Virus record (IMG/VR): IMGVR_UViG_3300033067_002307
Location: 1 to 35,452 of that record
Source of the DNA: a virus
Lineage: Duplodnaviria > Caudoviricetes
Reading direction: 5' to 3' (one strand)
Length of the DNA stretch: 35,452 bases
The notes under the pieces were generated by a model that was not told the DNA's origin, did no database searches, and saw only the letters and a list, made by a program, of their open reading frames with translations. The translations under genes and the position numbers were made by a program. Positions 8,291 to 33,796 of this stretch are shown in pieces. Positions within the stretch are counted from its first letter, which is position 1. Every line of letters begins with the position of its first letter.

Positions 8291-9172
8291 TCATGAGTCT
8301 AAGGCCTCTTTAAATTCCATTGAATAATTATTGATCCCTTCTTTGATTGTAAGATCATTTCGAAGAATAGGCCTGTTTTTTTCAAAGGGTGAATAATCCA
8401 CATGGTGATGCCAGCGACCGTATTTCATCACTAATTTTGAGACGTCTGGGTGCATTTCACAGAGCATTTTACTTTTAGGATAAGTCCCCTCTTTGGCATA
8501 AAAGGCGTCTGTATTACCCCCTTTGAGGACTTGAGTGCGTACTTTTTTTTGAAGGAACGCATTGAATTGAATTGTACAATAGCCCGCTTTTAATATTCTT
8601 AAGGAGATATCCGTATCTTCGTTATATCGGCCTCTCCATTGGTAGGGGCATGAGTTCTTGATCAAATTACAGCTATAAATACGCGTATTGAGCAAATAAG
8701 GTTTCCGCTTGTATCTACGTGGAACAAAGAATGAGTAGTTAGGCCCCGCCATCAAAACATTGGTATAGCGAAGACAGAAGTCCTCCATGGCTTTAAACAG
8801 GGCTGGGCTTTTACATTTTACCCGAAGGTTTTTATTAAGGCGCTCAAATCCGTTGATGTTATCATCCATGACCCAATGCCATTCATGACCATTTTTTATG
8901 GAATGATCCCATGCAAAGTTTCGTGCAGCTCCTGGGCCCTTGCTTTTCTGATATCCGAGAAGATCGAACGTGTCGTAGTTGTCCTGATATTTTTTATCTA
9001 AAATCAAGAGTCGTTCCTTGGGTATAACGGAGGCATATTGATCAAATTCCTGCTCTTCAATCACCACAAATGGGGCAATTCCCATTTCATCCAAAGATTT
9101 ATATGTGAGTCTAGAGTCCCATCGACCCTTGGAAACAATATAAATAGGGAATTGCGGGAGAAGTTCACTCAT
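8291..9172 (-). CDS. GT-A fold glycosyltransferase, TET-associated (TAGT)/GREB1-like phage family
   Basis: Motifs IYIVSKGR, ARN..WDHS, WVMDDNI, WRGRYNEDTDISL, GGNT..FY, GRWHHHVDY. Confidence 0.75.
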   Translation of the reverse strand: MSELLPQFPIYIVSKGRWDSRLTYKSLDEMGIAPFVVIEEQEFDQYASVIPKERLLILDKKYQDNYDTFDLLGYQKSKGPGAARNFAWDHSIKNGHEWHWVMDDNINGFERLNKNLRVKCKSPALFKAMEDFCLRYTNVLMAGPNYSFFVPRRYKRKPYLLNTRIYSCNLIKNSCPYQWRGRYNEDTDISLRILKAGYCTIQFNAFLQKKVRTQVLKGGNTDAFYAKEGTYPKSKMLCEMHPDVSKLVMKYGRWHHHVDYSPFEKNRPILRNDLTIKEGINNYSMEFKEALDS

Positions 9173-9788
9173 AGCTTTTTGCTTTTAAATTCTCGCGTTT
9201 GACTTCAGGAAACCAAATAGAACGTGTTTTGGTGGTTATTTTTTGCTTGATGATTCTACTGAATTGTTCAAGAGCCTCTTGGTCGACAAAATGGATGGTC
9301 ATCTTATGAAATCCGAATGCATCGGGCTGATCATATTCGGGCATGTCAGACCAGTCGTCATGCTTGCTTGAGACTTCTTTATCTGAGTAATTAAGAAAAA
9401 AGTTTTTTAAGCCAAGCATTTTGATATCTAAATCTGGCCCCAAATCTGGGATATCGGTATTGATCTCTGCAAAATTTAGCTCAGCCCAAGAGGCGATAGC
9501 ATTATCAGCTTGAACGTCAGCGTATTCTTGATCTGATGATTCATAGTCTTGATAGACGACAGGAACTTGTTTCCATTTTTTTTTGAATGCCGCTGCAATA
9601 CGACCGTGACCTGAAGTGACGCATCCTGAAAGTGTCGAGACCTTGATGGCGTATCGCCAGCCTTGATACTCAATGATTTCAGCGAGGCGCTCTATCTGAT
9701 CTTCCGGGTGCTTATTTCGATTCTTAGGATGATATTTCAGCTCCGAAGGATCGATCAGGGCGTCGTATTTGCAGTGTATTTTAGGCAT
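9165..9788 (-). CDS. ParB/Srx-like N-terminal domain protein (DNA-modification associated)
   Basis: HPKNRNKH..QI..L...I...GW, SGHGR..AA, ADN...SW are ParB-N signatures. Overlaps the glycosyltransferase gene. Confidence 0.8.
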   Translation of the reverse strand: MPKIHCKYDALIDPSELKYHPKNRNKHPEDQIERLAEIIEYQGWRYAIKVSTLSGCVTSGHGRIAAAFKKKWKQVPVVYQDYESSDQEYADVQADNAIASWAELNFAEINTDIPDLGPDLDIKMLGLKNFFLNYSDKEVSSKHDDWSDMPEYDQPDAFGFHKMTIHFVDQEALEQFSRIIKQKITTKTRSIWFPEVKRENLKAKSYE

Positions 9789-9790
9789 GT

Positions 9791-10042
9791 TTAATCCGCG
9801 AGTAGGGCTGCGTTTAGGTTGCCAATTCCGATGACGGCTTTCTTCCCTTTGATTTCGAGAAGGATGCCGTGGTCACAGAAGGAGGCTTTTACGCCTGGGC
9901 AGGTGGTTTGGTTAATCGATCTCAGGCCTGAAATAAATCCAGGGATAGAGACGGCCTCATGAAGAACGAGGTTTGTGATTTCAGTGGTGTGATCGATTTT
10001 TATTTTTTTGATGGGTTCAACTTTAGGCGCTGGGCTTGTCAT
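9791..10042 (-). CDS. Hypothetical protein
   Basis: 83 aa ORF tiled in the operon. Confidence 0.6.
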   Translation of the reverse strand: MTSPAPKVEPIKKIKIDHTTEITNLVLHEAVSIPGFISGLRSINQTTCPGVKASFCDHGILLEIKGKKAVIGIGNLNAALLAD

Positions 10043-10214
10043 CTTGGGTCTCCTTGTTAAGTTCGGCGGCTTGTTTATTGAAGTCTTCGAGCTTGAGCAT
10101 GATTTCGTTCATTTGAGCTTGGTTGATGTGCTGCTTGAAGAGAAGTTCACCGAGGGCGGCGCAGTGTTGGGTGTATGTTTTTTGGAGTTCTTCTTTAGTG
10201 AGTTTCTCGGACAT
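10023..10214 (-). CDS. Small coiled-coil hypothetical protein (start reassigned to ATG 10214)
   Basis: MSEKLTKEELQK..., SD AAAGGA upstream. Confidence 0.6.
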   Translation of the reverse strand: MSEKLTKEELQKTYTQHCAALGELLFKQHINQAQMNEIMLKLEDFNKQAAELNKETQDDKPSA

Positions 10215-10225
10215 AGTTTTTCCTT

Positions 10226-10651
10226 TCAGAAGGGTTTGTAGTTCCATTTTTTGGTTTTAAAGATTGAGAAGCCGACTTTTGTCAGATGGGAGACGTAATC
10301 GATATCTGTGGGCGTGATTTGTTTTGCGATTCCGATAGTGCGCCAGACGGGTTTAACCCAGACCCAGTGAAGGGTGGTTTTGTGTTCTGTTTTTTCAAAG
10401 ACGGAGTAGCCGAGAATGATTTCAGGGTCTTCTTTGAGACAGGCGATAATGCATTCACAGTGAGGGCGTTGGAAGAGGTCGTTGAGGTTTGTGCGGGCCA
10501 TTTCGTAGTAGCTGGGTTGAGAGAGAGGGTTGAGCCAGTCGTTACCGTGGAGATAGCCTTGAAGCCAGGTGGAGTAGATAAAGGGAACATCAGACGGTTG
10601 AGATTTTCTGGTCGCGATGAGCGATTTGCGATCAACGGTTTGCGGTTCCAT
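10226..10651 (-). CDS. GNAT-family acetyltransferase-like protein
   Basis: R.....D..FI...W start, ILGYSV strand, and LHWVWVKPVWRTIGIAK (acetyl-CoA motif A, R..G.A). Confidence 0.65.
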   Translation of the reverse strand: MEPQTVDRKSLIATRKSQPSDVPFIYSTWLQGYLHGNDWLNPLSQPSYYEMARTNLNDLFQRPHCECIIACLKEDPEIILGYSVFEKTEHKTTLHWVWVKPVWRTIGIAKQITPTDIDYVSHLTKVGFSIFKTKKWNYKPF

Positions 10652-11503: not shown

Positions 11504-11525
11504 TAAATCATAGAAGGAGATCGGC

Positions 11526-12321: not shown

Positions 12322-12503
12322 ATCGATTTGAAGACTATTCAAAACAGGAGCGTATCGAAATGAGAGCTTTTGAAGAATATATTATTCAACACGAAGTCGA
12401 GGCCCGGCTTGTTTTAAAACAAAAACTAAATAAAGAACCCACGATTGAAGAGGTTGAAGCCCTTCTCTCTGAGTGGTTCAATGAGGACTGGAATGGCGAA
12501 TAA
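12318..12503 (+). CDS. Hypothetical protein
   Basis: 61 aa, coupled ORF. Confidence 0.55.
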   Translation: MNRFEDYSKQERIEMRAFEEYIIQHEVEARLVLKQKLNKEPTIEEVEALLSEWFNEDWNGE

Positions 12504-12630
12504 ATCAAAAGCAATTTTAATTCGAATCACGGAAGAAGATCGAAAGCTTTTAAAGATTCTTTGTGCGGAGAAGTCCACGAGTGCTCAACAGCTTATTTAT
12601 TCGATGATTCAGAAGATTCTGAAGCGTTAG
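12493..12630 (+). CDS. Ribbon-helix-helix DNA-binding protein (start ATG 12493)
   Basis: MANKSKAILIRITEEDRKLLKILCAEKSTSAQQLI: alternating beta strand plus two helices; SD GAGG. Confidence 0.7.
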   Translation: MANKSKAILIRITEEDRKLLKILCAEKSTSAQQLIYSMIQKILKR

Positions 12631-13337: not shown

Positions 13338-13415
13338 AGCTCTCCCTTACTCACCTCACGATTAAGAGAATCATCACGATAAAAACAATGCACAAGATTT
13401 GAGAATGCTCTTCGG

Positions 13416-13727
13416 TCATTTTTTGGCCTTGCTCATTTCAAGCCAGGCATCGTCATAAGCAAAAGCACCGCCATTAAACACTCTGGGAATATAGCGAATG
13501 GTTTGCAAATCAAGTCTTCTGTTCTCAGGGTGTTTCATGAAAGCCACAACGTTATTTGTCGCATACACTTTAGCCCGATCTTGTTTGCGATTGATAAACA
13601 CCACAAACTCACCCGGCTTTAACTTTTTACAATCGATTTTATGTTCAAGCGCGGCGAGAGAAAGCCCGTCATGTTGCCCTCGAAGATCTGCGTTTTGAAA
13701 TATTCGGATGACACGATTTGATTTCAT
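13416..13727 (-). CDS. IS66 TnpB (Orf2)-like accessory protein, divergent
   Basis: ADLRGQHDGL...PGEFVVFINRKQDRAKVY resembles the IS66 Orf2 consensus as I recall it, DMR.G.DGL...G..FVF.NR..DR.K.L; 103 aa. Confidence 0.7.
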   Translation of the reverse strand: MKSNRVIRIFQNADLRGQHDGLSLAALEHKIDCKKLKPGEFVVFINRKQDRAKVYATNNVVAFMKHPENRRLDLQTIRYIPRVFNGGAFAYDDAWLEMSKAKK

Positions 13728-14032
13728 GCCGCAAACACCTCATGAATTTGCTTCAAGGCTTCCGCATCATTGCAAATCACAACCATAAATTTAGAATTTG
13801 AAACCGCTGGTAAAATCATCGGAGCTGAAAGACGTTTCGAATATTTTCGTTTTTCGACTTTTACAAACCTCTTTGTCTGATCGCCAAAATCAGGACCATA
13901 ATTCCCAAGGTTTGAAACACTAAATGATTTTCCCGTGATTGTTTTGAATCCCTCTTTGTTGAGAGTCTCTACAATCTGACGAGTCCCGATTCCATTTGAT
14001 TTTAGTTTTCGTGCGCGTTCTTGCCATTTCAT
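13724..14032 (-). CDS. HTH protein resembling IS66 TnpA (Orf1)
   Basis: N-terminal HTH-like (GIGTRQIVETLNKEG), FVKVE linker, C-terminal strand-helix (FMVVICNDAEALKQI), ATGA overlap with the TnpB-like gene. Confidence 0.55.
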   Translation of the reverse strand: MKWQERARKLKSNGIGTRQIVETLNKEGFKTITGKSFSVSNLGNYGPDFGDQTKRFVKVEKRKYSKRLSAPMILPAVSNSKFMVVICNDAEALKQIHEVFAA

Positions 14033-14044
14033 GCCGATTCTCCT

Positions 14045-14690
14045 CTTAGCTCTCCAACGTCGAGGTAAAACTATCCATAGATCATGATGCTATTTAATTC
14101 AATTGATTCTCATAGAAAGGGGGGCCCTTCTTAAGCGAAGATTCCATTTTGATAAAACCCGGGGAAGCTGAGATCCCCGAATCAATCCAAACCCTGTATT
14201 TGTATCATCGGGCTGTGAAAATTCGACTCATCCCCCGCCCATAAACAAGCATGGTTTGAATCACACGCCCGTATTTCAGGCATGGCCCGAGAGTATTTAA
14301 ATCTATGAGATGCCTCAATATGTTGAAGGACATTTCACTCTACCGCCCGGCATCACCCAGACTTTAGCCCTTCGCACCTCGAATAGACTTAAGAGATACC
14401 TCTCAAGCTTTGTGGCTACTTATCGACAGTCTTCTCAAACTGCCGCTGATTCGACCCTTCCACTCAAATTCTGGGCCCGGCACTTCTTGGAATCAGTCCC
14501 CCCGGTAATGCCTAATCCATTCTTAACCCGCTGGTTTTACCTCTCGTTAAAAATTTTGCTTGAAGTTTATGATGGAGGAAGTAATTCTAACCTCACATCA
14601 TAAACTTTATAGCGAAGTTAGAATCCCCCGAATCACCGAAGACTTTCAACCGTTTTCTTGAGCTCGGGGGATTTTTTTTGTTGAATCTCT
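14045..14690. ncRNA. Candidate large structured non-coding RNA / replication-control region
   Basis: Largest gap between confident genes in a densely tiled genome; multiple hairpins and long-range complementarities (see findings). Family not recognised. Confidence 0.45.
14622..14679 (+). terminator. Terminator-like stem AATCCCCCGA/TCGGGGGATT plus T run
   Basis: 10-bp perfect stem (14622-14631/14664-14673), 32-nt loop, T8 tail. Confidence 0.5.
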
Positions 14691-14719
14691 AAAAAACATT
14701 CGATAGATCCAAACTCGGC

Positions 14720-15589
14720 ATGATAGAAAAACTTCCGGTTCTTGTTACTTCTAATTTTGAGCCCCACTGGCTGACGATTTCGAACGATCTCTATCATGCC
14801 GATAAGTCTTCAATTTCAGCTAGTGGGCTCAAGCATCTCCTTAAAAGCCCGGCTCATTTCAAATACGAATGGATGAAATCACCTAAAGAACAAACCCCCG
14901 CTCAACGCATGGGGGAACTATTTCACGCCGCCATTCTTGAACCTGAGCGATTCCGCGAAAACATGGTGATTCAACCCGACTTCAACCGAAGAACAAACGC
15001 AGGGAAAGCCGCCGAAGCCGACTTCCTTTCAAAGCTCCCTGAAACAGCAATTGTCGTGAGCGAGGATGACTACCACTGGCTTTGCGGAGCGATCGAATCC
15101 GTTTACTCCCACCCCATCGCAAGAGGCGCTCTCAGAGGCGGTGAGAGAGAACTAACCGGAGTGTTTAGAGACCCCGAAACTGGGCTCAAATGCCGTATAC
15201 GCCCCGACTTAATCATCCGCGATAAAAACATCATTCTCGACGTAAAGACCTGCCAGGACGCCTCTCAGCGCGCTGTAGAGCGTGTTATCTGGCAATACGC
15301 CTACGATCTTCAGGCGGCTTTCTACCTTCACGGTTCACAGATCATTGAACAGAAGGTTTATGATACCTACCTCTGGTTATTCGTTGAAAAAACCGCTCCC
15401 TACGTTACAACCCTTTGGAAAGCTGATCAGGCCTGGCTTGAAATCGGCTCTCAACGAATGAAACGTTCCCTCCATAAACTGACAAGCTCAATTGAGGCCG
15501 GGGAGTTCCCAGGTTATCAGAATGAAGCCGAATGGATCTCTCCGCCCGATTGGGCCATGAAAGGACTCGACGATGGAATCTTCACATAA
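14720..15589 (+). CDS. RecE/exonuclease VIII-like PD-(D/E)XK nuclease (DUF3799-like)
   Basis: YHA...IS.SGLK.L..SP, G..FH.AILEP, KCRIRPD...DVKT, Y.YDLQAAFY, FVEK. Confidence 0.9.
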   Translation: MIEKLPVLVTSNFEPHWLTISNDLYHADKSSISASGLKHLLKSPAHFKYEWMKSPKEQTPAQRMGELFHAAILEPERFRENMVIQPDFNRRTNAGKAAEADFLSKLPETAIVVSEDDYHWLCGAIESVYSHPIARGALRGGERELTGVFRDPETGLKCRIRPDLIIRDKNIILDVKTCQDASQRAVERVIWQYAYDLQAAFYLHGSQIIEQKVYDTYLWLFVEKTAPYVTTLWKADQAWLEIGSQRMKRSLHKLTSSIEAGEFPGYQNEAEWISPPDWAMKGLDDGIFT

Positions 15590-16283
15590 ACAACTCGACC
15601 GACAACTCGCTCAAATCACAAATTCTCTTTTAAAATCTTTGGCAGAAGCAAAATTAGAATTCCCTGCCTTTGATAAAAAGGGAAAAAACCCTCATTTCAA
15701 GTCTGATTTTATTACGCTCGGGCAAATTCAAAGTTCGGTTACATCCATTCTCGCCAAACACAAGCTCGTCATCACTCAGCACGTCGGCGAAAACGCTTGC
15801 ACCACAATTTTAAATCATTTTGAGACTGGCGAATCTCTTGAGTGCTCCATCCCTCTCATTATTTCAAAAAATGATATGCAAGGCTTGGGCTCTGCCATCA
15901 CCTACGCTCGCCGATACGGCCTCATGACTCTTCTCGGAATTGCTGAATGGATTGAACCGCCCCCCGCAAAAGAAGGTGAGCCCGGTTATGATGACGATGG
16001 AAATGAAAATTCTTTGCAACAAAAAACGGGCGTCTATCGAGTGAACGTTGAAGGATCTAGTCACAACGGAAAAACTTTAGACGAAGTCGGAAGCGAAGGA
16101 ATCGTTAAAGCTCTTGATCATTGGAAAACAAGATTTGCCGCAAGCAAAGATAAACCCACCGGGAACGTTAAAGAATTCATGGAGGAGGCTGAGAAGTGGC
16201 TTGCCGAAACGGGACGAAAAACTCTTAACACTCAATTGAAACAAGATGGCCGCGGTCTCACTCCTCCTCCTCTTAAGAAGTGA
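15573..16283 (+). CDS. erf: ERF-family single-strand annealing protein
   Basis: K...NPHFKS, Q.LGSAITYARRY.L and DDDGN are ERF signatures. Confidence 0.9.
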   Translation: MESSHKQLDRQLAQITNSLLKSLAEAKLEFPAFDKKGKNPHFKSDFITLGQIQSSVTSILAKHKLVITQHVGENACTTILNHFETGESLECSIPLIISKNDMQGLGSAITYARRYGLMTLLGIAEWIEPPPAKEGEPGYDDDGNENSLQQKTGVYRVNVEGSSHNGKTLDEVGSEGIVKALDHWKTRFAASKDKPTGNVKEFMEEAEKWLAETGRKTLNTQLKQDGRGLTPPPLKK

Positions 16284-16319: not shown

Positions 16320-16631
16320 GTGGCCGAGAAAGACATTCAAAGAGAGATTCTCGACTTTCTTCTCGCTCATCCCAAAGTTACGCTGGTCTTCCAAAATGAT
16401 CACCGAAATCAACGAGCCCGTAAATTTGGCGCTGTCGGTAAATATAGACCTAAAGGTCTCCCCGATATCATCGGCTGCCTTAGCAACGGCCAATTCCTTG
16501 CGATCGAGGTCAAAGACACTCTTGGCCGCGTATCGGAAGAGCAATGCGGAATCCTTAGAAGAATTTCTGATGGCGGAGGCCTTGCTGGCGTTTGCCGATC
16601 AATCGAGGATGCAAGCAGGCTACTGGGATGA
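16320..16631 (+). CDS. VRR-NUC domain nuclease
   Basis: E.DIQ..I, KGLPDI...IEVK...GR.S.EQ, V.RS.ED. Confidence 0.85.
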   Translation: MAEKDIQREILDFLLAHPKVTLVFQNDHRNQRARKFGAVGKYRPKGLPDIIGCLSNGQFLAIEVKDTLGRVSEEQCGILRRISDGGGLAGVCRSIEDASRLLG

Positions 16632-18677: not shown

Positions 18678-19607
18678 ATGCCTTCTATTATTAAAAAACG
18701 AAGAATCCTTTCTTATGGAGGCTTAACGCTACCGTCCGTTGGACCCTTTGCAACATCTCCAAAACTGGTGGCAAGTTCACTTCCTAATTGGACGATTACA
18801 ACAAATACGTCGTGCCCATTGCACACCCGAGCTAACCCTCTCAAGTACAACACCATCGACTTTGCTGGCGCGACTCCGAAAACTCTGTACCCCTACACAT
18901 CGGCCATTTTTATTCGCTGTAATCTTTTGGTGAGGACCGGCGCTGTTTTTACTCAAATCTTTAATGGTGGAAATGGCGGTTACGGATTTGACGAAGGTTC
19001 AATTGGAGGCGATGGAAGTTCTGGCGGTGGTGCAGGAGCAGAAGCCTTTACCGATGCAGGTAATGGTGGATCGGGTGACGACGGAATTCCTTCAGATACT
19101 ATTCCCGGCGGTCTTGGTTACGGAAACATCTATAATTTTGATTACGCATTTTATCCGCAAGGTGGTGACGGCGGAGATGGCGGCTTTGGTCTTTCCGGTG
19201 GAAATTTTGGCCTTCGCGGCTTCAAAGGCAACGGATACGGAGGCGGCGGCGGCGGTGGTGGCGGAGACTCTTCTGGAGTCAGGGGAGCAGGAGGCGGTGG
19301 AGCGGGCGGCCTCACAGTCATTGTCGCGAACGAATCTCGTGGCGCTATTTTTTTTGACGTCAGTGGTGGCGGAGGCGGAAATGGCGATGCAACCACAGGC
19401 GGAGGCGGCGGAGGTGGATCTGGAGCCATATATCTAGCCTTCAAGAAATACGACGGCCTCATCACAGCACTCGCTGCAGGAGGTACAGGCGGATTTGGAT
19501 ACATCAACGGAAACAACGGAGCCTCTGGAACAATCGCAATTTACGAAATCGGTAGAGACAATTCACTCACAGCCAGAACCCTGGCGAGTACTTGGAATAA
19601 TTTATAA
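18678..19607 (+). CDS. Glycine-rich (polyglycine II-type) adhesin-like protein
   Basis: Repeated GGGGxGG blocks alternating with short beta strands (LTVIVA, AIYLAF, TIAIYE), reminiscent of gp38-type adhesins. Confidence 0.6.
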   Translation: MPSIIKKRRILSYGGLTLPSVGPFATSPKLVASSLPNWTITTNTSCPLHTRANPLKYNTIDFAGATPKTLYPYTSAIFIRCNLLVRTGAVFTQIFNGGNGGYGFDEGSIGGDGSSGGGAGAEAFTDAGNGGSGDDGIPSDTIPGGLGYGNIYNFDYAFYPQGGDGGDGGFGLSGGNFGLRGFKGNGYGGGGGGGGGDSSGVRGAGGGGAGGLTVIVANESRGAIFFDVSGGGGGNGDATTGGGGGGGSGAIYLAFKKYDGLITALAAGGTGGFGYINGNNGASGTIAIYEIGRDNSLTARTLASTWNNL

Positions 19608-19619
19608 AGGAGACAAATT

Positions 19620-19832
19620 ATGGCAACACTTGGAACGATTACTTACGGAACCGCAGGACTTACACTCACCATCAAAGATTCAGATGTTGAAGGTGGCTTT
19701 GCTTCTTTTACACTCGGAGGCGCTGGCCTTGGTGGACAAGAATTTACATTTGAAGCCGCTCAAACTGAAGTTCAAAAAACATTTCGAATGATTGGAGCGG
19801 TTCTTCAACTTAAAGCAGCCCAGTCGCTCTAA
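19620..19832 (+). CDS. Small hypothetical protein
   Basis: 70 aa, SD AAGGAG, TAATG coupling to the next gene. Confidence 0.7.
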   Translation: MATLGTITYGTAGLTLTIKDSDVEGGFASFTLGGAGLGGQEFTFEAAQTEVQKTFRMIGAVLQLKAAQSL

Positions 19833-21058
19833 TGCCTTCAATTATAAAAAAACGAAGAATAAGTGGGGGTCTTTTAGATCCAGCCGTTGCTCTTTATTTT
19901 GCACGCGGAGTCATTACAAACCCCACTGAAAAGGCCGCCGTCATCACTTTGATCAGGGGCCTTAAGTCTTCTGGAATTTATAACAAACTAGATCGTCTAT
20001 GGCTAATGAGCCCAACCTCTGAAGCAGCTGGCCTGTTAGATTTCATCACGCTTACGAGCATGACCAATAACTTCGCCACGCATGGATCAACGGGCTTTAC
20101 CTTTAACGGAACAACAGCGTGGCTTAATACAAATTACCAGCCAGCCTCATCTTCAAAACTTACAGCTAACGACTGCTCTTTTGGAGTCAACGTGTACTCA
20201 GGCACTCCATCCGGCACAAAATCACTTTTGGGATGCACAGATAGTTTCGTTCCAAACTCAATTCGTATTAATGCAGCCGTTTCTGGTGCTAATCTCGTCT
20301 GGACTTATTCAGCCCCAAGTAGCTCGCAAGGGGCTAGCTATACCGCCCAAACATCCACCGATATGATTGGATTTCGAGTGGCCTCCAGAACAAGTAGCAC
20401 CCTCGTCAACGCCTACCAAAATGGATGCGCTTCTCTCGCTAATTCAACCACAGCCAACACAGCCACCCTTTCAGCAGCTACTTTTGCATTGGGTGCGTTT
20501 TATAATGATGGGCTGGGTTCTGCAGGAAACTTCTTTAGCGGAGTTCTAAACCTTGGTTTTATAGCAAAAGGTTTATCAACTGCTGAAATTCAAACTTTTG
20601 ATGAACTTCAATCAGCTTATCAAAACGCCTTGGGTCGCTATGCTTACGCTCCCTCATCAGCGACGTATTTTTCTAATCAATCCATTACAGCGTTTTACGA
20701 AAAATATGCAGCAAACCGATGGATTGCTGAGATGCAAGCTCGAAATATCTGGGCCAAAATGTCGAGAGTCTATCTCTTTAGCCAAACGAGTGCAGCAGCC
20801 GCGAGAGCCTGTGCCAAAACAAACAACTCTTTGACCGTCGTTAACGGAGCGTCTTGGAACAATGCTGGCTATAATACAAATGGAGTAACGGATCTTTTGA
20901 GATTTGATGCGGCCACCAGCACGTTTACTGAAATCACGGCGACAAGTTCTCATATGTTTTCAATGTTTTCAGACCCGGCCACTTACCCAACTAATTCATA
21001 CATGGGCAATGATAACCTAACCGACGCCTATGCTCTGACGGGAGACCTTGCCATATGA
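19832..21058 (+). CDS. Lectin-like (ConA/LamG-like) protein with 1.5 internal repeats
   Basis: F.FNGT.AWL.T...SFGV...SRT.....AYQNG...LG....GLS..E....Y..ALGR, followed by the start of a second copy. Confidence 0.55.
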   Translation: MPSIIKKRRISGGLLDPAVALYFARGVITNPTEKAAVITLIRGLKSSGIYNKLDRLWLMSPTSEAAGLLDFITLTSMTNNFATHGSTGFTFNGTTAWLNTNYQPASSSKLTANDCSFGVNVYSGTPSGTKSLLGCTDSFVPNSIRINAAVSGANLVWTYSAPSSSQGASYTAQTSTDMIGFRVASRTSSTLVNAYQNGCASLANSTTANTATLSAATFALGAFYNDGLGSAGNFFSGVLNLGFIAKGLSTAEIQTFDELQSAYQNALGRYAYAPSSATYFSNQSITAFYEKYAANRWIAEMQARNIWAKMSRVYLFSQTSAAAARACAKTNNSLTVVNGASWNNAGYNTNGVTDLLRFDAATSTFTEITATSSHMFSMFSDPATYPTNSYMGNDNLTDAYALTGDLAI

Positions 21059-21414
21059 GTGTGATTCCAATTGGCGTTTCGTCTTTTACTTTTATTCGAC
21101 AATCGGCGGCTCAATCTCCGGGCGTAGGATATTATCACTCCTTTAGTGGAAGCCGGGCTTCTTCGACGAGCATCAAGTTTTTTTACGATGGCATTCTTGT
21201 CACGACAAACACAACTCTCGATACTGGATCGGTCCCAACCTGGAAAGCAGGAATTGGTGCCGTTACGGCTACTGACTCAACACAAACCAATTACAGCGCA
21301 TTGACCTCGATCTGCACCGCTTCATTAGGCTCAAGCTTAACGGATACAGAGCACGCACAACTTTACGCTGCCAGCGTTCTTTATAACAAAGCCTTAGGAA
21401 GGTTTATCCCATGA
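21055..21414 (+). CDS. C-terminal half of the second lectin-like repeat
   Basis: SRASSTSIKFFYDG...GIGA...LG.SLT.TE...Y.KALGR parallels the end of repeat 1; ATGA overlap. Confidence 0.55.
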   Translation: MSVIPIGVSSFTFIRQSAAQSPGVGYYHSFSGSRASSTSIKFFYDGILVTTNTTLDTGSVPTWKAGIGAVTATDSTQTNYSALTSICTASLGSSLTDTEHAQLYAASVLYNKALGRFIP

Positions 21415-21821
21415 GTAACATCTTTGTTCCGCCCAAAAGATTTCCCAATTATTTTGAAATGATTTTAATTCCTAACGAAAACGTCGAATCTCTTAAGATC
21501 GCGCCGACAGAACAGAACCTGCAAACAGAGATTTGTCCTATTCAGGGCGGAGACAACGTTTTTCGTCTGCCAGCATCTGTGTTTGATTCCGAATACTGGT
21601 CGCAGGAACAAAAGGACTTGCTCGTTACACTCTGCGGAGGCCCGGCTTTTGGCTCTATTCAAGAACTAGAATCTGATATTTTTTGTGGCCCGCTTGGAAT
21701 TCACACAATGAACGATTTGAATGCAGAGCAAATCAACCGCTTAGAAGAGATTCAAAATGGAGATAGGGCTGGACGTCTTCTTGGAAAACGATTCGCCCTG
21801 ACCGAAATGAAAAAGTCTTAA
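21411..21821 (+). CDS. Hypothetical protein, last gene of antisense cassette (possible assembly chaperone)
   Basis: 136 aa, ATGA overlap; chaperone role inferred from position only. Confidence 0.55.
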   Translation: MSNIFVPPKRFPNYFEMILIPNENVESLKIAPTEQNLQTEICPIQGGDNVFRLPASVFDSEYWSQEQKDLLVTLCGGPAFGSIQELESDIFCGPLGIHTMNDLNAEQINRLEEIQNGDRAGRLLGKRFALTEMKKS

Positions 21822-24421: not shown

Positions 24422-27292
24422 CTAGTAATGCCCGCCAGCCTCTCGTCGAGCCATCCCTGGCATCGCCTGCTTCGCAAGCTTCCCTAAATTCTTAGGCCCT
24501 GACTGAGATTGAACCCGAGCCTGGTCTTGCTGATCCTTTGAAACGCCAGGACTCATCGATTGAATCTTTGTGATCGCTTCCGGTGTCATCGTCGAATCAA
24601 GCGGCTGTCCCATAAAAATGGCCATATTCATTCTAACGTCATACGGAATGGTTTCACCGTTTTGATGAGCATCTGAGATCTTATTAAACATCGCACCCTT
24701 CATGGCTTTATAAAGCGAAGGATAGAACGATGCTAATGTCGTGACGTCCTGAGGCTGTAGGGTCTTATCAGAGATGTGCTTCAAAACAATAAGAGGGCTT
24801 TGAGCGATATCGATTTTTCGTTCGTACTCAGCCTTTTGACCTGCCGTTTGAACTGGCTTTGAATCTAATAGAGCGTTTCTAGGCTCTACGTCGGGCGGCC
24901 TCATTTGAGCGAGTTGGTTGAGAGCATTTGTTCTCGCCATCTCAACCGAGACGCCGTGTTGAGGCATATAGCCAGGAATCTTGTTCGGCTGCTCTAAGGT
25001 TTTCATCGGGTTCAATTGGTATTCTTTGACCTGCTTATCGAGCTTGCTTCGAGAGCTTTCATTAGGAATCAACTGGCTAGGAAGCACAACAGATCCAGAT
25101 TTGATCAGCTTTGAAATCGCCTTATCGGTAACCTCTGCTCCTCGTGTTCCCGTTTCGATTAGATTTATCATGGCCTTGAAAGCGCCGGCATCAACAGGCT
25201 TTTCAGAGCCTAAGAATTTGAGCAAACCAAGCCGAACCGCATCAGGAGCCGCTTGAAGCTGTTTACTTAATAACCCAACAGCCGCACCCACAATGGGATT
25301 ATGAGAAGCAATCGCCGTTACCATTCCGGTTCCAACGGCCAACTTATCCGAAAGCCATCCCTCAACTCCCTGAGGAGTTCCGCTCTTCCCTATTTTTTCA
25401 GGGAGAGCTTTGACTAACTTTTCAGCCGCTTCAATAGACGCCAACTGTTCTCGAGTGAATGTTGCTTCTCTCAAGTCCGTATTCATCCCACGAACAATTT
25501 TGGCGAGCTTGTTGATATCGAGATAAGTTCCGCTCGGACCTTCTTTAACAGACTGGCGAACGACTGAATCAATTCGATAATTATTTAAAATACCCTTCCA
25601 CGCATCAGGTAGAAGCTCTTGAAGCCCGGCATCATTCTTTGGCAAAAGCCGGTTAAGAACTTTTTCGGGAGCCATTCCTTTTAAATTATAAAGAAAGCTA
25701 TCAGCTCCACGATAATTACCTAAATGAAGACGATCATCAAGACCGTCTAAATACTTCATAAACTGTGAATACTTTTGTTTGGCATCTGTAAAATAGGCAA
25801 GCTCAGCCTCTGCCTTACCACTTGATTTAAAGGCGGACTCGAGGGCGTCCATTCGTGCCTCTTCAAAATACGGGCGCACGTTTCGCTTCAAATCCCACAG
25901 CTGATTTTGATGAAACTCTGCAAGTCTGTTTGATTCAAACTTTCGAAGCTGCTCAAGCGTCTGAATATTATCCATGCTCTTAATCATTGCCATGAGCTTC
26001 TTAGAAGCTTCTAGGTTTGGATCGGCTAGATAACCCTCTCGCTCCGCCATGGCCATTAGATTTTGTTTTAGCTTCGTAATGGTGCCCGGCTCTTTTGTGA
26101 ACGATTGAACCGCTTCGTCAGCTGACAAATAAGGATTTTTTTGAGTCTTTAAAATCGGACGGTCTTGAGGCAAATCAATGTTTTTATAAGTCTCTTCAAT
26201 CTTCTGCCAATTGCCGGCGTTTTTCTTCATGCCCTGAATGGTTTTTTCCATTTCAGTAACAAGCTCTGTCCCCGTTTTATTAGGAGAAAAATCGTGAACC
26301 GTTTCCAGGGTCTCTTTGCCAAGCTTCCCCGATAAGTTCTTCTGAAGATTATCAACAAACGCGGCCTTATTGGCTTGAGCTTCAAGCGCAGAGCCCGTGT
26401 TGCTTTCAAACAATCTTAACCACTGATTCTGCAGTACTGGATCACCAGAAAATGCCGCCTTAATTTCAGGGAATTGCTCTGCTAAATCGGGAGCCATCTT
26501 TTGAATGGCCGCAGACATTTCTGTCGGAAGCTCAACAGCTGAGCCGTTCGTTTTGTCTTGAATGGCTTTTAGAATCTTTGCAGTCTTTGACCCGGCGACC
26601 GCATCCCAAAGTGGGCTAATTGTTCCAAGGCCTCCTCCAAAAGCTCCGCCTAAAACACCGGCTAAACCAATATTCGCAACCGCTGCTTCTACGCTAAACG
26701 GAGCATCGCTCATCACGGCCTTGTGATATTCATCGCCAACTTGAAAGGCAGCAGTTTCAGCAGCTCCCTTAACAGCAGCAGATCCAACCTTGGCCGCCAT
26801 TCCAATAGGCTGAGCTAAACCAACCGCTTCAGTCGCCGACTTACCAAGTTTTTCAAGGATAGCGCCTTCACCAAAACCACCACTGCCAATAAGACCTGCA
26901 GCTGCACCCGCAAACTTAGCGACAGGATTTAAATTCTCTTCACGAGCTTTGATCGCTTCTTTATCAGCGCCGAATTGAATTTGAAGTGGCGTCGACAAAC
27001 CAAACGTTGCCGCTCTTCCAGCCTCTTCAAGAGTTCCTAAAAGCTGTTGAGGTAAACTCGAATATTTTTGTTGATCGAGATATTGCTTAACCTCATCGTC
27101 AGAAGCGACTTCAAACCCATTTTGCTGAGCCTCTGCAAGCTGTGAAATGGGCAAAGATCCAATCTCACCCGTATCGCTTTTAACGTTTACAACTTGAGGA
27201 GCTTCAACCTGTGCTACTGGCGCGGCCTGATGCATCTCCTCTGGTGGTGTGATATTCCCACCAACCAGGTTAAGAGGTAGTTCGCCATCCAT
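24422..27292 (-). CDS. Large internal virion / DNA ejection protein
   Basis: 956 aa, helical, Gly/Ala-rich hydrophobic stretches, ATFGLS motif; third of three large genes after the nozzle. Confidence 0.65.
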   Translation of the reverse strand: MDGELPLNLVGGNITPPEEMHQAAPVAQVEAPQVVNVKSDTGEIGSLPISQLAEAQQNGFEVASDDEVKQYLDQQKYSSLPQQLLGTLEEAGRAATFGLSTPLQIQFGADKEAIKAREENLNPVAKFAGAAAGLIGSGGFGEGAILEKLGKSATEAVGLAQPIGMAAKVGSAAVKGAAETAAFQVGDEYHKAVMSDAPFSVEAAVANIGLAGVLGGAFGGGLGTISPLWDAVAGSKTAKILKAIQDKTNGSAVELPTEMSAAIQKMAPDLAEQFPEIKAAFSGDPVLQNQWLRLFESNTGSALEAQANKAAFVDNLQKNLSGKLGKETLETVHDFSPNKTGTELVTEMEKTIQGMKKNAGNWQKIEETYKNIDLPQDRPILKTQKNPYLSADEAVQSFTKEPGTITKLKQNLMAMAEREGYLADPNLEASKKLMAMIKSMDNIQTLEQLRKFESNRLAEFHQNQLWDLKRNVRPYFEEARMDALESAFKSSGKAEAELAYFTDAKQKYSQFMKYLDGLDDRLHLGNYRGADSFLYNLKGMAPEKVLNRLLPKNDAGLQELLPDAWKGILNNYRIDSVVRQSVKEGPSGTYLDINKLAKIVRGMNTDLREATFTREQLASIEAAEKLVKALPEKIGKSGTPQGVEGWLSDKLAVGTGMVTAIASHNPIVGAAVGLLSKQLQAAPDAVRLGLLKFLGSEKPVDAGAFKAMINLIETGTRGAEVTDKAISKLIKSGSVVLPSQLIPNESSRSKLDKQVKEYQLNPMKTLEQPNKIPGYMPQHGVSVEMARTNALNQLAQMRPPDVEPRNALLDSKPVQTAGQKAEYERKIDIAQSPLIVLKHISDKTLQPQDVTTLASFYPSLYKAMKGAMFNKISDAHQNGETIPYDVRMNMAIFMGQPLDSTMTPEAITKIQSMSPGVSKDQQDQARVQSQSGPKNLGKLAKQAMPGMARREAGGHY

Positions 27293-29082
27293 TATCGACC
27301 CCCAGCTAAAACGGGCGCACCCAACTGAAATTTGTCTTGGCCCTGGCTGTTGTATCTCTCGGTCGGAGCAACCATCATTTTTTGAACCATTCCATAGACC
27401 ATAGGATTCGATTGAATCGTAGGCGCGTTCAATTTTTGATTAAAGATATCTTCAACCGATCTTAGGCCTTTTAAGAACGTTTGTTCGTTCGCCAACAAAC
27501 TTGGAAGCAGATTGGTTGTTTGTTCAACCTCAGCGTCAGAAACTTTTCCAGAGATCATTCTCGCAAGTTCCATGGGAATTTGAGCCTTAATTTGTGACAT
27601 ACGAACGCGAGATTGTGGGTTCACATTTCCGCCGAGCGTATTGAGATCATAATACTCTCGCATAAGTTTCGTGGCGTTTTGCTTTGCCTTAAATCTCTCT
27701 TGGAGTTCTCCAAGCTCTTCAAAAGCCTTGGGCTGATCTTTGGGGTCCATCATCATTTTGATCGCCAGAGCAGGATTACCCTGTCCGCCAGTTTGAAGGC
27801 CTTGCATCATCGCCTGTCGAGCGGCGACAGCTTGAATCGTTTGCGCCTTCTCTTCCATTAACTTACCAATCGCCATTTTAGCGTTGGCCATCGCCAAAGG
27901 AGTTCCAGACTTAGCGGCAGCCGATTGAATCTGACTTGCCAGAATGTCTTGAAGCTGAATTCTCGTCATCGCCGTAGCATCATAGACGTTTTTGAACTGA
28001 GCTAAATTCGCGTTAAGAAGAGTTCTTGCGTTTTCACCCTCATGCTCTTGGGTTTTGATATCTCTCTCAATTTGAGCATTTAAATATTGAAGAGCAGGGT
28101 TTTCTGTTCTTGTGATTCCAGCACCTGCGCCGCCAAGGAGAGCACCAATGCCAGACCATATTTTTTCGCCCGTCGACATGCTGTTGATATATCGATTCGG
28201 GTCAATGTGGTTTTGCTGAACGGCTTGAATAAAACTTTGGTTTTGCTTTTGAAGCATCCCCAACTGATTTTTATAAATATTTAAAGCCTGTTCTTGAGAC
28301 TTAATATTTAAATCATACGCACGAGCCTTTGCTTGCTCTGCTTGAGCCGTAGCCGCCGCCGCATCATTTAATCCCTGAATTTGTTCGCCAACTCCACTAA
28401 CAGTCATATTAGCAGCTGCATTGTATCCATAAGGATCAGCGTTTTGCGGAGCTTGGGGAGCTTGTTGGCCTTCGGTCATGGCCGCATTCGCCGTAGCCGG
28501 AACTTGAGCTTGAGCCTCAGGCATTTGAGCACCCGGGCTCATGGGCAAACCATATTGAGACGCAACTTGATTAAACTTAGCCGCAGCTTCTGCTTTTTTC
28601 TTCATGGCTTCGGCCTGATTTGTTGCCGCAGCTTCTTGCTGAGATTTCATCTCTTGAAATGCGTTCAATCGTTTTTCGGGATCAACATCAGGATTTAAAA
28701 CAGCAAACTTTCTCTCATCGAAAGTCCCGTTGCTGAAATACTCTTTGCCGGGTGCTGCCTGAGGCGGAGGCTGAACAGATGCCCCACCACTCACAACGGG
28801 AGCCATATAATCCATGGAATTTTGAGGAGGCGCGTTGTTTACATTCACCACAACAGGCTGTTGAGGCTGTGATGCGACTTGATCGGGCTGAGACGAGACC
28901 TGATTAGGGTCTTCAACCATTCCTTGATCTGCCATGTTCAAAGGAAGCGATGAAAGCTGAGCTCTCATCCTTGGCGAAATGCCAGACTTGGCAACATTGA
29001 TCTCGTGCCCATCTGGATGTTTAAGAGTCGCTGAAATTTTATCTTCACGAATCTTCTTAAAGTTTTTAAAATCCATTCTCAT
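27292..29082 (-). CDS. Internal virion / DNA ejection protein
   Basis: 596 aa, Gln/Ala/Met-rich, with an IWSGIGALLGGAGAG segment. Confidence 0.6.
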   Translation of the reverse strand: MRMDFKNFKKIREDKISATLKHPDGHEINVAKSGISPRMRAQLSSLPLNMADQGMVEDPNQVSSQPDQVASQPQQPVVVNVNNAPPQNSMDYMAPVVSGGASVQPPPQAAPGKEYFSNGTFDERKFAVLNPDVDPEKRLNAFQEMKSQQEAAATNQAEAMKKKAEAAAKFNQVASQYGLPMSPGAQMPEAQAQVPATANAAMTEGQQAPQAPQNADPYGYNAAANMTVSGVGEQIQGLNDAAAATAQAEQAKARAYDLNIKSQEQALNIYKNQLGMLQKQNQSFIQAVQQNHIDPNRYINSMSTGEKIWSGIGALLGGAGAGITRTENPALQYLNAQIERDIKTQEHEGENARTLLNANLAQFKNVYDATAMTRIQLQDILASQIQSAAAKSGTPLAMANAKMAIGKLMEEKAQTIQAVAARQAMMQGLQTGGQGNPALAIKMMMDPKDQPKAFEELGELQERFKAKQNATKLMREYYDLNTLGGNVNPQSRVRMSQIKAQIPMELARMISGKVSDAEVEQTTNLLPSLLANEQTFLKGLRSVEDIFNQKLNAPTIQSNPMVYGMVQKMMVAPTERYNSQGQDKFQLGAPVLAGGR

Positions 29083-30338
29083 TTCTTGCCCCTTTTCATC
29101 GATTGTTTAGCAAGAATCGCCTCCACAAAAGCTTTCGCCTTATCGGGAGCGTTCGGATCTAGAGTGACAGACCGTGGAAGTACGATTTCTTTAGGGCTCA
29201 AAAGTGCTGGCACCTTATCGTTTTTCAGAGAATCGCCAGATACTTTTGCTTTGCCCGGGACGACGGCGCCTTGATTTAAAAACAAAGAGCCAATTGTTGA
29301 GGCGGCTTTGCCTAAAGTATCACCAATTGAACTACCAGCAGATTTCATAGGAGATTGTGGCGCCGCCGCGATAGGCGCTGCCATCATCGGAGCAGGAGCT
29401 GGCGCGGATTGATCATCGTTTGCCCAACCCTTTAAAAATCTTTCAGCAAATCCAACCTCTCCACCATCAGCATAGGAGTGAACAAGCCCACCATTGTATC
29501 CGGTCGTAACAGGAGGAGCATCGTTGCCCTCTGGTTTTTTATCGGGTGTTCCCAAAAATTTACCAACGATATCGGCCCCAGATTTAGCAAGGCCCCCGAC
29601 AAAATCCTGTTGACCACGCTGAGCGCCAGAAGCCATTCCAGCGTTGGCTGCGTTTGTGCTACCCGCGTTTGAAACACGCGCATTATTGTAAGCTGCCATC
29701 GCATTTAAAAGCTGTTGCTGATTCGCCAAGTTCCCTTGAGCTAATCCCATCGTAGCGCCACCGAGATTTTGAATCTGATTACCCGCCACGCCCTGCATCG
29801 CATTTTGTTGGCCTTGCAGAAGTTGCTGAGCCGCTAATTGTTGCTGAGCTCTCATGAGAGCGCCTTGGCCCACAGCTTGTTGCTGAATATTTGCACCCTG
29901 CATTCCAGCTTGTCGTGCGATCAATCCAGGATTAGCCGCAGAGCCTCTTTGCCCAGCCATCAGAGCAGCTTGAGCCGCAACGTTTTGGCCTGTCGTATTT
30001 GCTAATTGAGCGAGAGCAGGATTCGGGCCTTCGCCTTGAGCTTGTAAGCCCAACTGATTTGCTAAAGCCTGTTGCTGATTAAAAACATTGGATTGATTGG
30101 TGATTCCACCTTGAGACTGAAGAGCGTTCAAGAAAGCTTGTTGCTGATCAAGAGCACCTAAAGATCGCCTTTTCTGACCGTTGATATCTTCGAGTGAGAC
30201 GGATTGATCGAGATTAAGAGGGTTAAATTCAGCGTTGGCACCTCCGCCACCACCAAGACCGAAGACATCTTTAACGCCTCCGACTACTCCTCCGACCACA
30301 TCACCAATTGCGCCAACGGCATCTCCGATAAAACCCAT
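29079..30338 (-). CDS. Internal virion / pilot (ejection) protein
   Basis: Gly-rich amphipathic N-terminus, Gln/Ala-rich body, C-terminal GDS..ND.VPA.LSP.E.VLP motif. Confidence 0.6.
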   Translation of the reverse strand: MGFIGDAVGAIGDVVGGVVGGVKDVFGLGGGGGANAEFNPLNLDQSVSLEDINGQKRRSLGALDQQQAFLNALQSQGGITNQSNVFNQQQALANQLGLQAQGEGPNPALAQLANTTGQNVAAQAALMAGQRGSAANPGLIARQAGMQGANIQQQAVGQGALMRAQQQLAAQQLLQGQQNAMQGVAGNQIQNLGGATMGLAQGNLANQQQLLNAMAAYNNARVSNAGSTNAANAGMASGAQRGQQDFVGGLAKSGADIVGKFLGTPDKKPEGNDAPPVTTGYNGGLVHSYADGGEVGFAERFLKGWANDDQSAPAPAPMMAAPIAAAPQSPMKSAGSSIGDTLGKAASTIGSLFLNQGAVVPGKAKVSGDSLKNDKVPALLSPKEIVLPRSVTLDPNAPDKAKAFVEAILAKQSMKRGKK

Positions 30339-30377
30339 GCTTTTAACTCCTTAAAATGAAGCGCAAAAGCATCGTGA

Positions 30378-30794
30378 TTAGAGCCGCAGATCGATAAGGC
30401 TTTCCTTCATCCGCTCAAATCCGTGCTTTCTGCTTCTCACTAAAGTGCAAATGTCTGACGACCAAGCCACAATTCGAATCAAATTAATCGAATACGCCTC
30501 ATGGATGATTCCCTTCACAGCCGCATCAATCGCCATATTCCGCTCGTGCCTTCGAATACTAGGATCAACAATAAGACCGTCTACTAAACCCATTCGGCCC
30601 TCAACAAGCCTTAAGAAGGCCGCTGCCCGTGGGATATTATTAATCTGAGCGAGAACGCCAATTTGAGGGAGTGCGTGAACGAGATTCGGGCTCATTCCGT
30701 GGCCATGAAGCCACCCGGTAATCACTTCCTGATTCTCATCGGCCCGATATCGGCTAACCGACGGAGTTAGCAGCTTTGATTCTCGGATAGACAC
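30378..30794 (-). CDS. GNAT-fold virion assembly protein (position of T7 gp13 / P22 gp14)
   Basis: AAAFL...DGLIVDP.....R...HGF pattern; between nozzle and ejection genes. Confidence 0.55.
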   Translation of the reverse strand: MSIRESKLLTPSVSRYRADENQEVITGWLHGHGMSPNLVHALPQIGVLAQINNIPRAAAFLRLVEGRMGLVDGLIVDPSIRRHERNMAIDAAVKGIIHEAYSINLIRIVAWSSDICTLVRSRKHGFERMKESLIDLRL

Positions 30795-33700: not shown

Positions 33701-33795
33701 TCTAAAAACCTGCCCAAGCTGATTTGCTTAGGATCTGTTTTTGTATCCACTCCGAGAGCGAAATTGATGGGCACGGGTTGTTTTTGTAATGCCAT
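30754..33795 (-). CDS. Tail nozzle / tubular protein B (P22 gp10-like, beta-propeller)
   Basis: 1013 aa, all-beta; RLFL...VWFS, ITAL....MIVFK, G...P.SIV....IIF.S.KGIW, YDY...W, KTGWI. Confidence 0.75.
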   Translation of the reverse strand: MALQKQPVPINFALGVDTKTDPKQISLGRFLELKNCNFSKAGLFQKRNGFASLPALPSGTYSYLTTYNGGLTALGTSLASYSTGAQQWVNKGTITATDITSAALVSNNANQQQCDVAISSTGLTCCVYTDVGTTTTYKYTIVDTATQQVVVAPTSISTANGTPRVFTLNNYFVIVFPSTAANTLQYIAITITAPATVTVATNLSTNYSNSGAQGAFDGIVANNVLYIAFAGNGGGGDLRVTSLSATLTQGGTTVFAVEPTTLVGIGADFTTGTPEIYVAKYNSAATTGKWAVLDNNLSIIRAPTQFEFLAVGQMTNITVTAANQLGKVFYETTGAFTYGTLAQTDAVNSRVIPRAGAVGGKVVIKLGCGLAAKAFRYNNTSYFVGTYGSNNQPTYFLIDENGNIGAKFAYQNGAGYLTKGLSSVSMIGSTAYFSFLYKDLVVPVNKTRGASVNGVYAQLGIKLGTINFTTSNMVTSEVGGNLHMTGGITYAFDGSSLVEQGFHLYPDYVECVWNALGGAMAAKPDGATNTNAYYYTALYEWADNNGNIFRSAPSIPFGVTTTGAGTTGSVVVNVPCMRMTAKTLNAIKIVIYRWSVAQQTFYQVTSISAPTFNDPFTDSIAFTDTLADASIVGNSILYTTGGVVEDIGAPASCAATLFKTRLFLVDAEDRNLVWFSKPVIENTPVEFSDLLTRYLAPTISAQGNTGPITALSAMDDKMIVFKKNALYYMTGNGPDLTGLNDDFSEFVFISSTVGTTNPKSIVFTPDGIIFQSDKGIWILTRDLNTVYIGAAVEAYNSYTVTSALTIPSTNQVRFTMSSGDVLVYDYFFKQWFTYTATAIQSSCLFQNLQTTIDSFGAVLQELSGSYLDGSRPVTMKIKTGWINIAGLQGFQRAYFLTLLGSYLSPHKLIVSIAYDYNDSFTQSTVINPDNYTPNYGGDSLYGGTSPFGGPGTLEQWRVFLQTQKCQAIQVTIEEVYDPSYGVAAGAGFTLSGMNLIVGVKGVYPRIKAANSVG

Positions 33796-33796
33796 G

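Follow-up and report, generated by a model that had tools for sequence, protein, structure and literature searches.

A transposase-free phage relative of the IS66 tnpA/tnpB gene pair

What does a gene pair that resembles the helper genes of an insertion sequence do in a phage genome without the transposase? IS66 elements have the layout tnpABC (PMC6778807), and the extra ORFs of IS21 and IS66 are described as mostly of unknown role and probably regulatory (PMC3281130). The window studied here is a whole viral record of 35,452 nt, about 80% complete. In it, a first-pass annotation had pointed out an orphan tnpA/tnpB-like pair, thought to be co-opted by the phage and possibly to work with a structured non-coding region beside it. 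We conclude that the pair is not an IS66 element, and no RNA involvement is shown. With a probability of about 0.93, it is a selected, transposase-free phage module.

The gene pair and its surroundings

The two genes overlap in an ATGA at 13724-13727 and are thereby coupled, as had been described, and both motifs that had been picked out, DLR..HDGL and FVVFINRKQDR.K, are found in the 103-aa TnpB-like protein. Where a strong SD had been proposed for both ORFs, SD-like motifs are present, GAGGAG ahead of the partner gene and GAGGTG ahead of the TnpB-like start at 13727. A common early start motif is likewise present: CGGC-ATGA stands at the start codons of four putative early genes (11526, 13727, 14032 and 14720, with the CGGC at 11522, 13731, 14036 and 14716), and a post hoc test gives P ~7e-4 for at least four of 48 ATG starts. 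The motif is private to the phage of the window (1 of 58 loci).

Taken alone, the TnpB-like protein matches PF05717 with E 0.004 (17.5 bits, cut-off 26.6) and NF033819 with E 0.002 (about 18 bits, cut-off 50). This single-sequence match is weak and below the cut-offs. The N-terminus of the partner matches PF07508, a serine-recombinase-type HTH, at residues 9-42 (E 0.003), and the ESM Atlas places the HTH with clusters of stand-alone recombinase-type domains (0.92). The layout consists of this HTH (about residues 2-45), a basic linker KRKYSKR and a C-terminal strand-helix. The TnpA-like architecture that had been read into this first ORF stands as regards an HTH and a terminal strand-helix; the HTH is of recombinase type and not HTH_Tnp_1, and the FVKVE counted as part of the architecture falls in a variable linker.

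Table 1 Coordinates of features in the window
Feature	Position	Strand	Remarks
SU10-type capsid and portal, terminase	window		family matches
TET-associated glycosyltransferase (PF20691, E 4e-42), ParB-like and GNAT-like genes	8291-10651	-	adjoin terminase
Ribbon-helix-helix protein (PF23807, E 2e-5)	12445-12630	+	where rightward and leftward small-gene runs converge
TnpB (IS66 Orf2)-like protein, 103 aa, net charge +9	13416-13727	-	phage family member
TnpA-like partner, 102 aa, net charge +10	13724-14032	-	ATGA-coupled to TnpB-like gene
Stretch with minus-only folding	14033-14530	-	z -4.2 on -, 0.1 on +
SD-like GAGGAG ahead of partner start	14040-14045	-	precedes CGGC-ATGA
Long hairpin, G-U pairs favour + strand	14552-14619	+	fold
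Long hairpin followed by U run, terminator-like	14620-14681	+	reading of the fold; the consensus scan did not list it
Exonuclease VIII-like gene	14720-15589	+	recombination module, divergent from pair
ERF annealing protein	15573-16283	+	recombination module
VRR-NUC	16320-16631	+	recombination module

The pair comes first in a leftward run of small ORFs, and the recombination module diverges from it across a gap of 687 nt (Table 1). Upstream of the pair, an operator search gave only 7-bp near-palindromes, which are obtainable by chance, and a consensus scan for promoters and terminators gave counts equal to those of shuffles. Compared to cultured phages, the terminase finds matches of only 25-27%.

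A few observations concern other parts of the record. The exonuclease start codon has no SD and falls within a perfect 13-bp inverted repeat (14715-14802, fold z -5.0 on the + strand), of which one arm contains the codon and the other encodes a LYHAD stretch; translational control, or a true start elsewhere, are possible. The genes at 8291-10651 likely form a DNA base-modification module. Long ORFs of 309, 408, 956, 596, 419, 1013 and 361 aa, at 18678-21821 (+) and 24422-34882 (-), have no PHROG match. Just 3' of the TnpB-like stop, a 44-nt intergenic piece (13381-13424), possibly a small promoter or signal, is also present on an otherwise unlike contig (run X5).

Relatives of the pair and signs of selection

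Word-based searches for homologues found almost nothing. Five pattern scans led to 134 loci, of which 48 were discarded as chance matches. When L001 and the window are counted in, the family HMM was passed by 88 ORFs, of which 69 are distinct. Loci L001, L025, L126 and L167 are identical in sequence to the window and do not count as independent. A profile of the TnpB-like protein and one close homologue was run on clusters at 50% identity, with 1.84 billion representatives in all; 504 clusters matched at E<=1e-3, and 236 did so at E<=1e-10. The family alignment comprises 149 rows, namely the query and 148 of the 150 clusters listed, two large repeat proteins being omitted. Its consensus reads DLRxGHxGL...LxxGExVxFxN...K...IPxxF; N46 is invariant and H19, L22, L36, G39, F44, K53, P81 and F84 are nearly so. 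Pfam, NCBIfam and PHROGs hardly register this family. PF05717 is matched weakly (E<=0.05) by 95 of the 149 aligned members, at best with E 1.4e-5, and any PHROG by two.

Profile comparison against canonical TnpB by hhalign gives probabilities of 95.2% (18 sequences) and 95.9% (37 sequences), with E between 3e-8 and 6e-9 over residues 6-70, compared to 0.3% and 1.2% for crossed controls. The proposed likeness to IS66 Orf2 is thus recovered as a remote match of the core, and the profiles point to a remote homologue of IS66 TnpB, a relationship that is firm only at the family level. A quick tree built from 66 members of the family and 37 canonical TnpBs has a single branch that splits the two groups (SH-aLRT 99); the tree is unrooted, its canonical TnpBs come nearly all from two phyla, and the direction of transfer is not readable from it.

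The AlphaFold model of the TnpB-like protein is a confident alpha/beta domain (pLDDT 90.7). Foldseek found no match to it at E<=0.001 in the PDB and BFVD, and no solved structure related by sequence was found. The best VIA hit, the SH2 domain of SPT6 (Z 4.4, rmsd 3.2, 68 aligned), was set aside as a weak common arrangement. For the partner model, structure search returned generic HTH matches only (Z up to 5.7), with Bxb1 in the top row of Foldseek (rmsd 2.4 over 49 columns, E 4).

Where do these genes reside? In 185,579 species genomes, scanned with a pattern that captures 77 of the 149 family members, ten matches included two true ones, both on contigs with phage-type genes. A further 300 genomes from the phylum of one true match gave none, and the cultured phages searched held no family member. 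L033, from a bin labelled Emcibacteraceae, lies on a contig with portal and terminase, and L029 on one with a D5-type primase-helicase; these contigs may be misbinned phage instead of prophage. Among the large neighbours in the relatives are terminases, portals, primase-helicases, ligases and annealing proteins. A large serine integrase stands about 240 nt downstream of the pair in L110 (6486-8093) and L112 (4330-5937), so that some carriers of the pair are probably temperate.

The partner is conserved along with the TnpB-like gene, and the pair comes back in dozens of other sequences from uncultured phages. It reaches at least 14 bits in 58 of the 63 loci with at least 400 nt upstream, being adjacent in 52 and separated by one gene in six. 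Since the profile was built from 35 hand-picked partners, the fair test is that on the loci outside this set, where 23 of 28 have a partner (17 of 22 after removal of near-duplicates); about four non-partner ORFs among 3891 scored reach 14 bits. The five loci below the threshold have candidates by eye, which are adjacent in L008 and L080, one gene up and cut by the contig end in L082, and, as the sole candidate, 4 kb away in L020. In L006 (5539-5900) the partner occupies two frames, one with an HTH-like piece and the other with the C-terminal piece; a frameshift, an error or recoding is possible.

Across the family the partner is laid out as HTH, basic linker, strand and strand-helix, with tandem HTHs in some members and a plain helix in place of the terminal strand-helix in nine (e.g. 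L015, L088, L023). The type of HTH is exchanged between loci. HTH_Tnp_1 is matched by 16 of 64 upstream ORFs scanned (68 less four near-duplicates), six of these above cut-off; eight match only another HTH and two, including the partner in the window, match Recombinase. Recombinase-type partners are those of L001 and L019 and, by eye, L116 and L080. Within the 35 profile partners, IS3-type HTH matches occur in eight, NF047595 is matched by four and NF047593 by three. Compared to canonical TnpA by profile, the HTH scores 93% probability and the C-terminal part 0.5% (hhalign), its layout being similar by eye. Both proteins are basic throughout the family, with median net charges of +9 and +11.

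None of this comes with a transposase. Neither PF03050 nor PF13007 is matched anywhere in the 35 kb of the record, about 80% complete; PF03050 is also absent from all 24 related records searched, 11 of them at least 90% complete and none of them among 18 metagenome loci outside the reach of this search, and PF13007 does not pass its cut-off in any of 19, compared to a detection of PF03050 in 5 of 14 control genomes. No transposase family was found among 78 of the 79 neighbouring ORFs of at least 300 aa (one duplicate was omitted). The absence of TnpC noted for the window therefore extends to the related records searched. Similarly, no paired IS66 ends had been seen, and the sequence upstream of the pair indeed lacks the end motif, nor does any terminal repeat pair there exceed a shuffled control. 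This motif, the GTAAG with which the terminal inverted repeats of IS66 start, was validated on canonical control loci; in the 800 nt upstream, 12 of 15 canonical loci have it versus 1 of 62 family loci, and in 40 loci the best terminal repeat pairs equal those of a shuffled control. The family loci thus offer no ends at which the 8-bp target duplication of IS66 could be read.

Selection was gauged by dN/dS, as had been proposed. In the three informative close pairs the ratio is 0.06, 0.12 and 0.19 for the TnpB-like gene; for the partner, close pairs give 0.10, 0.19 and about 0.6, the last resting on few changes. In distant pairs the synonymous sites are saturated, and pairs that are nearly identical carry no information. 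With dN below dS in the informative comparisons, the pair is under purifying selection in close pairs. Because the family is diverse, the partner is conserved, transposase and ends are lacking, and dN is below dS, the earlier argument for co-option over decay is well supported. A diverse, selected and transposase-free pair implies a job that is independent of TnpC.

Possible roles and the non-coding region

What might this job be? Our leaning, held at a little short of even odds, is that the two proteins work jointly in early regulation, acting on DNA of the phage itself. The partner would bind DNA through its HTH and basic linker, and its C-terminal strand-helix may pair in trans with itself or with the TnpB-like protein. 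The HTH protein would pick the site, at which the TnpB-like protein would supply a constant function, and the resulting nucleoprotein assembly at an early control region could repress or time early transcription. In the phage of the window, it would form at the divergent gap before the exonuclease-ERF operon. That one subunit stays constant while the HTH of the other is exchanged suggests a division into address and effector. In the AlphaFold monomer of the partner, residues 81-88 are confident yet unpaired. Co-variation of the two proteins is slight, with a Mantel rho of 0.19 that 30 of 1000 permutations reach, before any correction for kinship. A complex prediction from the TnpB-like alignment and the last 48 residues of the partner speaks neither for nor against a complex (score 0.02, controls not folded).

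The pair often has recombination genes nearby. In 14 of 35 loci, an ssDNA-annealing gene, recognised by annotation in 12 and by clustering in two, lies within about 3.7 kb of the pair. The 35 comprise the window and 34 non-redundant loci for which 2.5 kb upstream was available; out of 199 ORFs selected there, 150 were compared to PHROGs, and the large ones were scanned separately. This closeness weakens to P 0.04 at an expected rate of 25%, with kinship uncorrected. Lambdoid phages keep early regulators near recombination genes, and the closeness fits a regulator and a recombination helper equally well.

We consider it rather doubtful that the pair is such a helper, binding phage DNA, bending or protecting it or its ends, and then passing it on either to the phage's exonuclease and annealing protein or to repair enzymes of the host. 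TnpA and TnpB may assist TnpC in a similar way. Transposition of IS679 reportedly needs all three genes. Besides the general closeness, there are five loci (L011, L021, L045, L076, L080) in which the annealing gene shares the strand of the TnpB-like gene and ends less than 500 nt from the start of the latter. However, 21 of the 35 loci have no annealing gene within the distance considered, and the annealing proteins are ERF, RecT and Sak4-like ones, of families unrelated to one another. A sliding-clamp motif is reported for IS66 TnpB or TnpC (PMC3971601), but a clamp-like motif is found in only 1 of 69 TnpB-like proteins and 0 of 62 partner C-termini.

A broader proposal, which we regard as possible though far from probable, is that TnpA/TnpB is an autonomous two-part DNA-targeting module, native to many uncultured phages and maybe recruited by IS66. 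With similar reserve, this module would consist of a swappable HTH address and a conserved effector, which has a fold unmatched in the PDB and may have a D-R-H-N-K active site. On conservation, the invariant polar residues H19, N46 and K53 could equally mark such a site, and those common to both branches (D14, R16, G21, L22, F44, N46, K53) are candidates for mutagenesis. If the proposal is true, working out the version in phages would show what the IS66 helpers do biochemically. IS66 is a common insertion-sequence family, and the natural HTH swaps in phages could test the partner as the effector's address.

It is unlikely that the pair serves as a toxin-antitoxin or host-takeover system, with the TnpB-like protein as an enzyme, perhaps a nuclease acting through D14, R16, H19, N46 and K53, restrained by its HTH partner. 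The order of an HTH gene followed by a coupled small gene, the sizes and the invariant polar residues would agree with it. Antitoxin tails are usually acidic, though, and both proteins are strongly basic; a gene is inserted between the two in six loci by score and in L082, and L020 has no adjacent partner. D14, R16, N46 and K53 are common to IS66 TnpB, for which we know of no reported toxicity. Pfam and NCBIfam toxin families match neither the protein nor its family. In sum, nothing was found in support of a nuclease or toxin activity, and this reading fits poorly.

The first-pass annotation had further raised the idea of an RNA-protein system, linked to a structured element of about 650 nt directly upstream. 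The non-coding stretch measures 687 nt (14033-14719) and does fold better than shuffles (z -5.9 on the + strand, -5.5 on the - strand). It is not one unit, however, and falls into two strand-opposed parts: for the two long hairpins at 14552-14675 the + strand gives the best fold (z -7.5), and the stretch 14033-14530, likely a divergent control region or 5' leader, folds on the other strand only. The terminator-like hairpin points to the exonuclease gene, away from the pair.

Homologues of the region are lacking. Rfam gives no match (best E 1.2), nhmmer finds only copies of the window's own genome in the fetched loci (best other E 0.43), and none was found in 50,697 phage records. Relatives of the exonuclease are all at most 35% identical and have no copy of the region beside them. 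Of 45 other loci with at least 900 nt available upstream of the partner, seven have at least 500 nt free of ORFs of at least 100 aa. In 37 of 46 loci, an ORF of at least 60 aa ends within 150 nt of the partner or overlaps it, a criterion that also counts spurious ORFs and misjudges the window itself. When the gaps of six relatives were folded, L062 (695-nt gap) reached z -3.1 and the others stayed above -2.4.

Reads of a close strain in runs X4 and X5 cover 14168-14788 and most of the recombination genes; they do not cover 13604-14037 and are uninformative there. Nine substitutions fall in the region, of which two turn a predicted G-U into an A-U pair, four break a pair and three are unpaired; no two-sided compensatory change is among them. 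Loose read ends at 14168 in both runs include the complement of 14107-14121 and may reflect just a remodelled hairpin. A 97-aa ORF (14310-14603) was rejected as a gene: it has no SD and no family match, and in the close strain all three changed codons differ at first or second positions, compared to eight of eight third-position changes in the exonuclease.

It is very improbable that the pair acts with a structured RNA of 14033-14719, for instance as an antiterminator at 14620-14681. The folding, the terminator-like hairpin directly before the exonuclease gene, the basic nature of both proteins, the two G-U to A-U variants and the single relative L062 speak for it. Against it stand the lack of Rfam matches and homologues, the ORFs close to most partners (subject to the spurious ones counted), a strand preference of the strongest hairpins opposite to the pair, and substitutions of which four of nine break a predicted pair and none compensates. 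The conserved linkage that had been anticipated is not seen, and its absence is what the first-pass annotation itself had named as refuting its idea. With homologues of the region absent elsewhere and no comparable gap in most relatives, the RNA-protein system is unsupported. The folded region is best read as the phage's own control region, a leader with terminator-like hairpins and not an RNA subunit, and it possibly holds a binding site.

Finally, we give next to no credit to the pair being a neutral relic left by IS66 after loss of its transposase, for which the single-sequence scores under the family cut-offs could be cited, given that the family, with its hundreds of clusters, stands on a deep branch of its own, is under purifying selection, has no ends and has no member found beside TnpC. 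A small remainder of probability goes to functions other than those considered here.

Comparison with known systems

Our literature search, outside of which lay subscription journals and bioRxiv supplements, brought up no description of TnpA/TnpB pairs that phages carry without a transposase. The pair is a real and widespread phage variant of the IS66 helper pair, and apparently an undescribed one. It shares with IS66 the order and coupling of tnpA and tnpB (ATGA here, adjacent in 52 of 63 loci), the TnpB core D-x-R-x-G-x-x-G-L and F-x-N-x6-K, and the HTH_Tnp_1 of TnpA in a quarter of the partners (16 of 64). Unlike IS66, it has neither TnpC nor GTAAG-type ends and is found, in the viral records examined, as one copy within phage early regions. 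H19, LxxG and IPxxF of the phage family stand in place of F/I, DP and WD..KRLE.GRF.WP of canonical IS66 TnpB, and the C-terminal domain of the partner is shorter than that of TnpA, with a varying type of HTH.

Residues 9-42 of the partner resemble the DNA-binding domain of large serine recombinases such as Bxb1 and phiC31 (PF07508), but the catalytic resolvase domain is absent and the HTH is fused to a TnpA-like tail. OrfA of IS3 is a small accessory regulator of its insertion sequence. The partner also recalls Arc of IS605, a small DNA-binding accessory protein that is reported to repress the genes of its element (bioRxiv 10.64898/2026.09.24.754181). Unlike the phage partner, Arc and OrfA stay within transposons and have no TnpB_IS66-like companion. 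With type II toxin-antitoxin operons, the pair has in common two small coupled genes with the HTH protein first; it differs in that no toxin family matches, both proteins are basic and insertions between the genes are tolerated.
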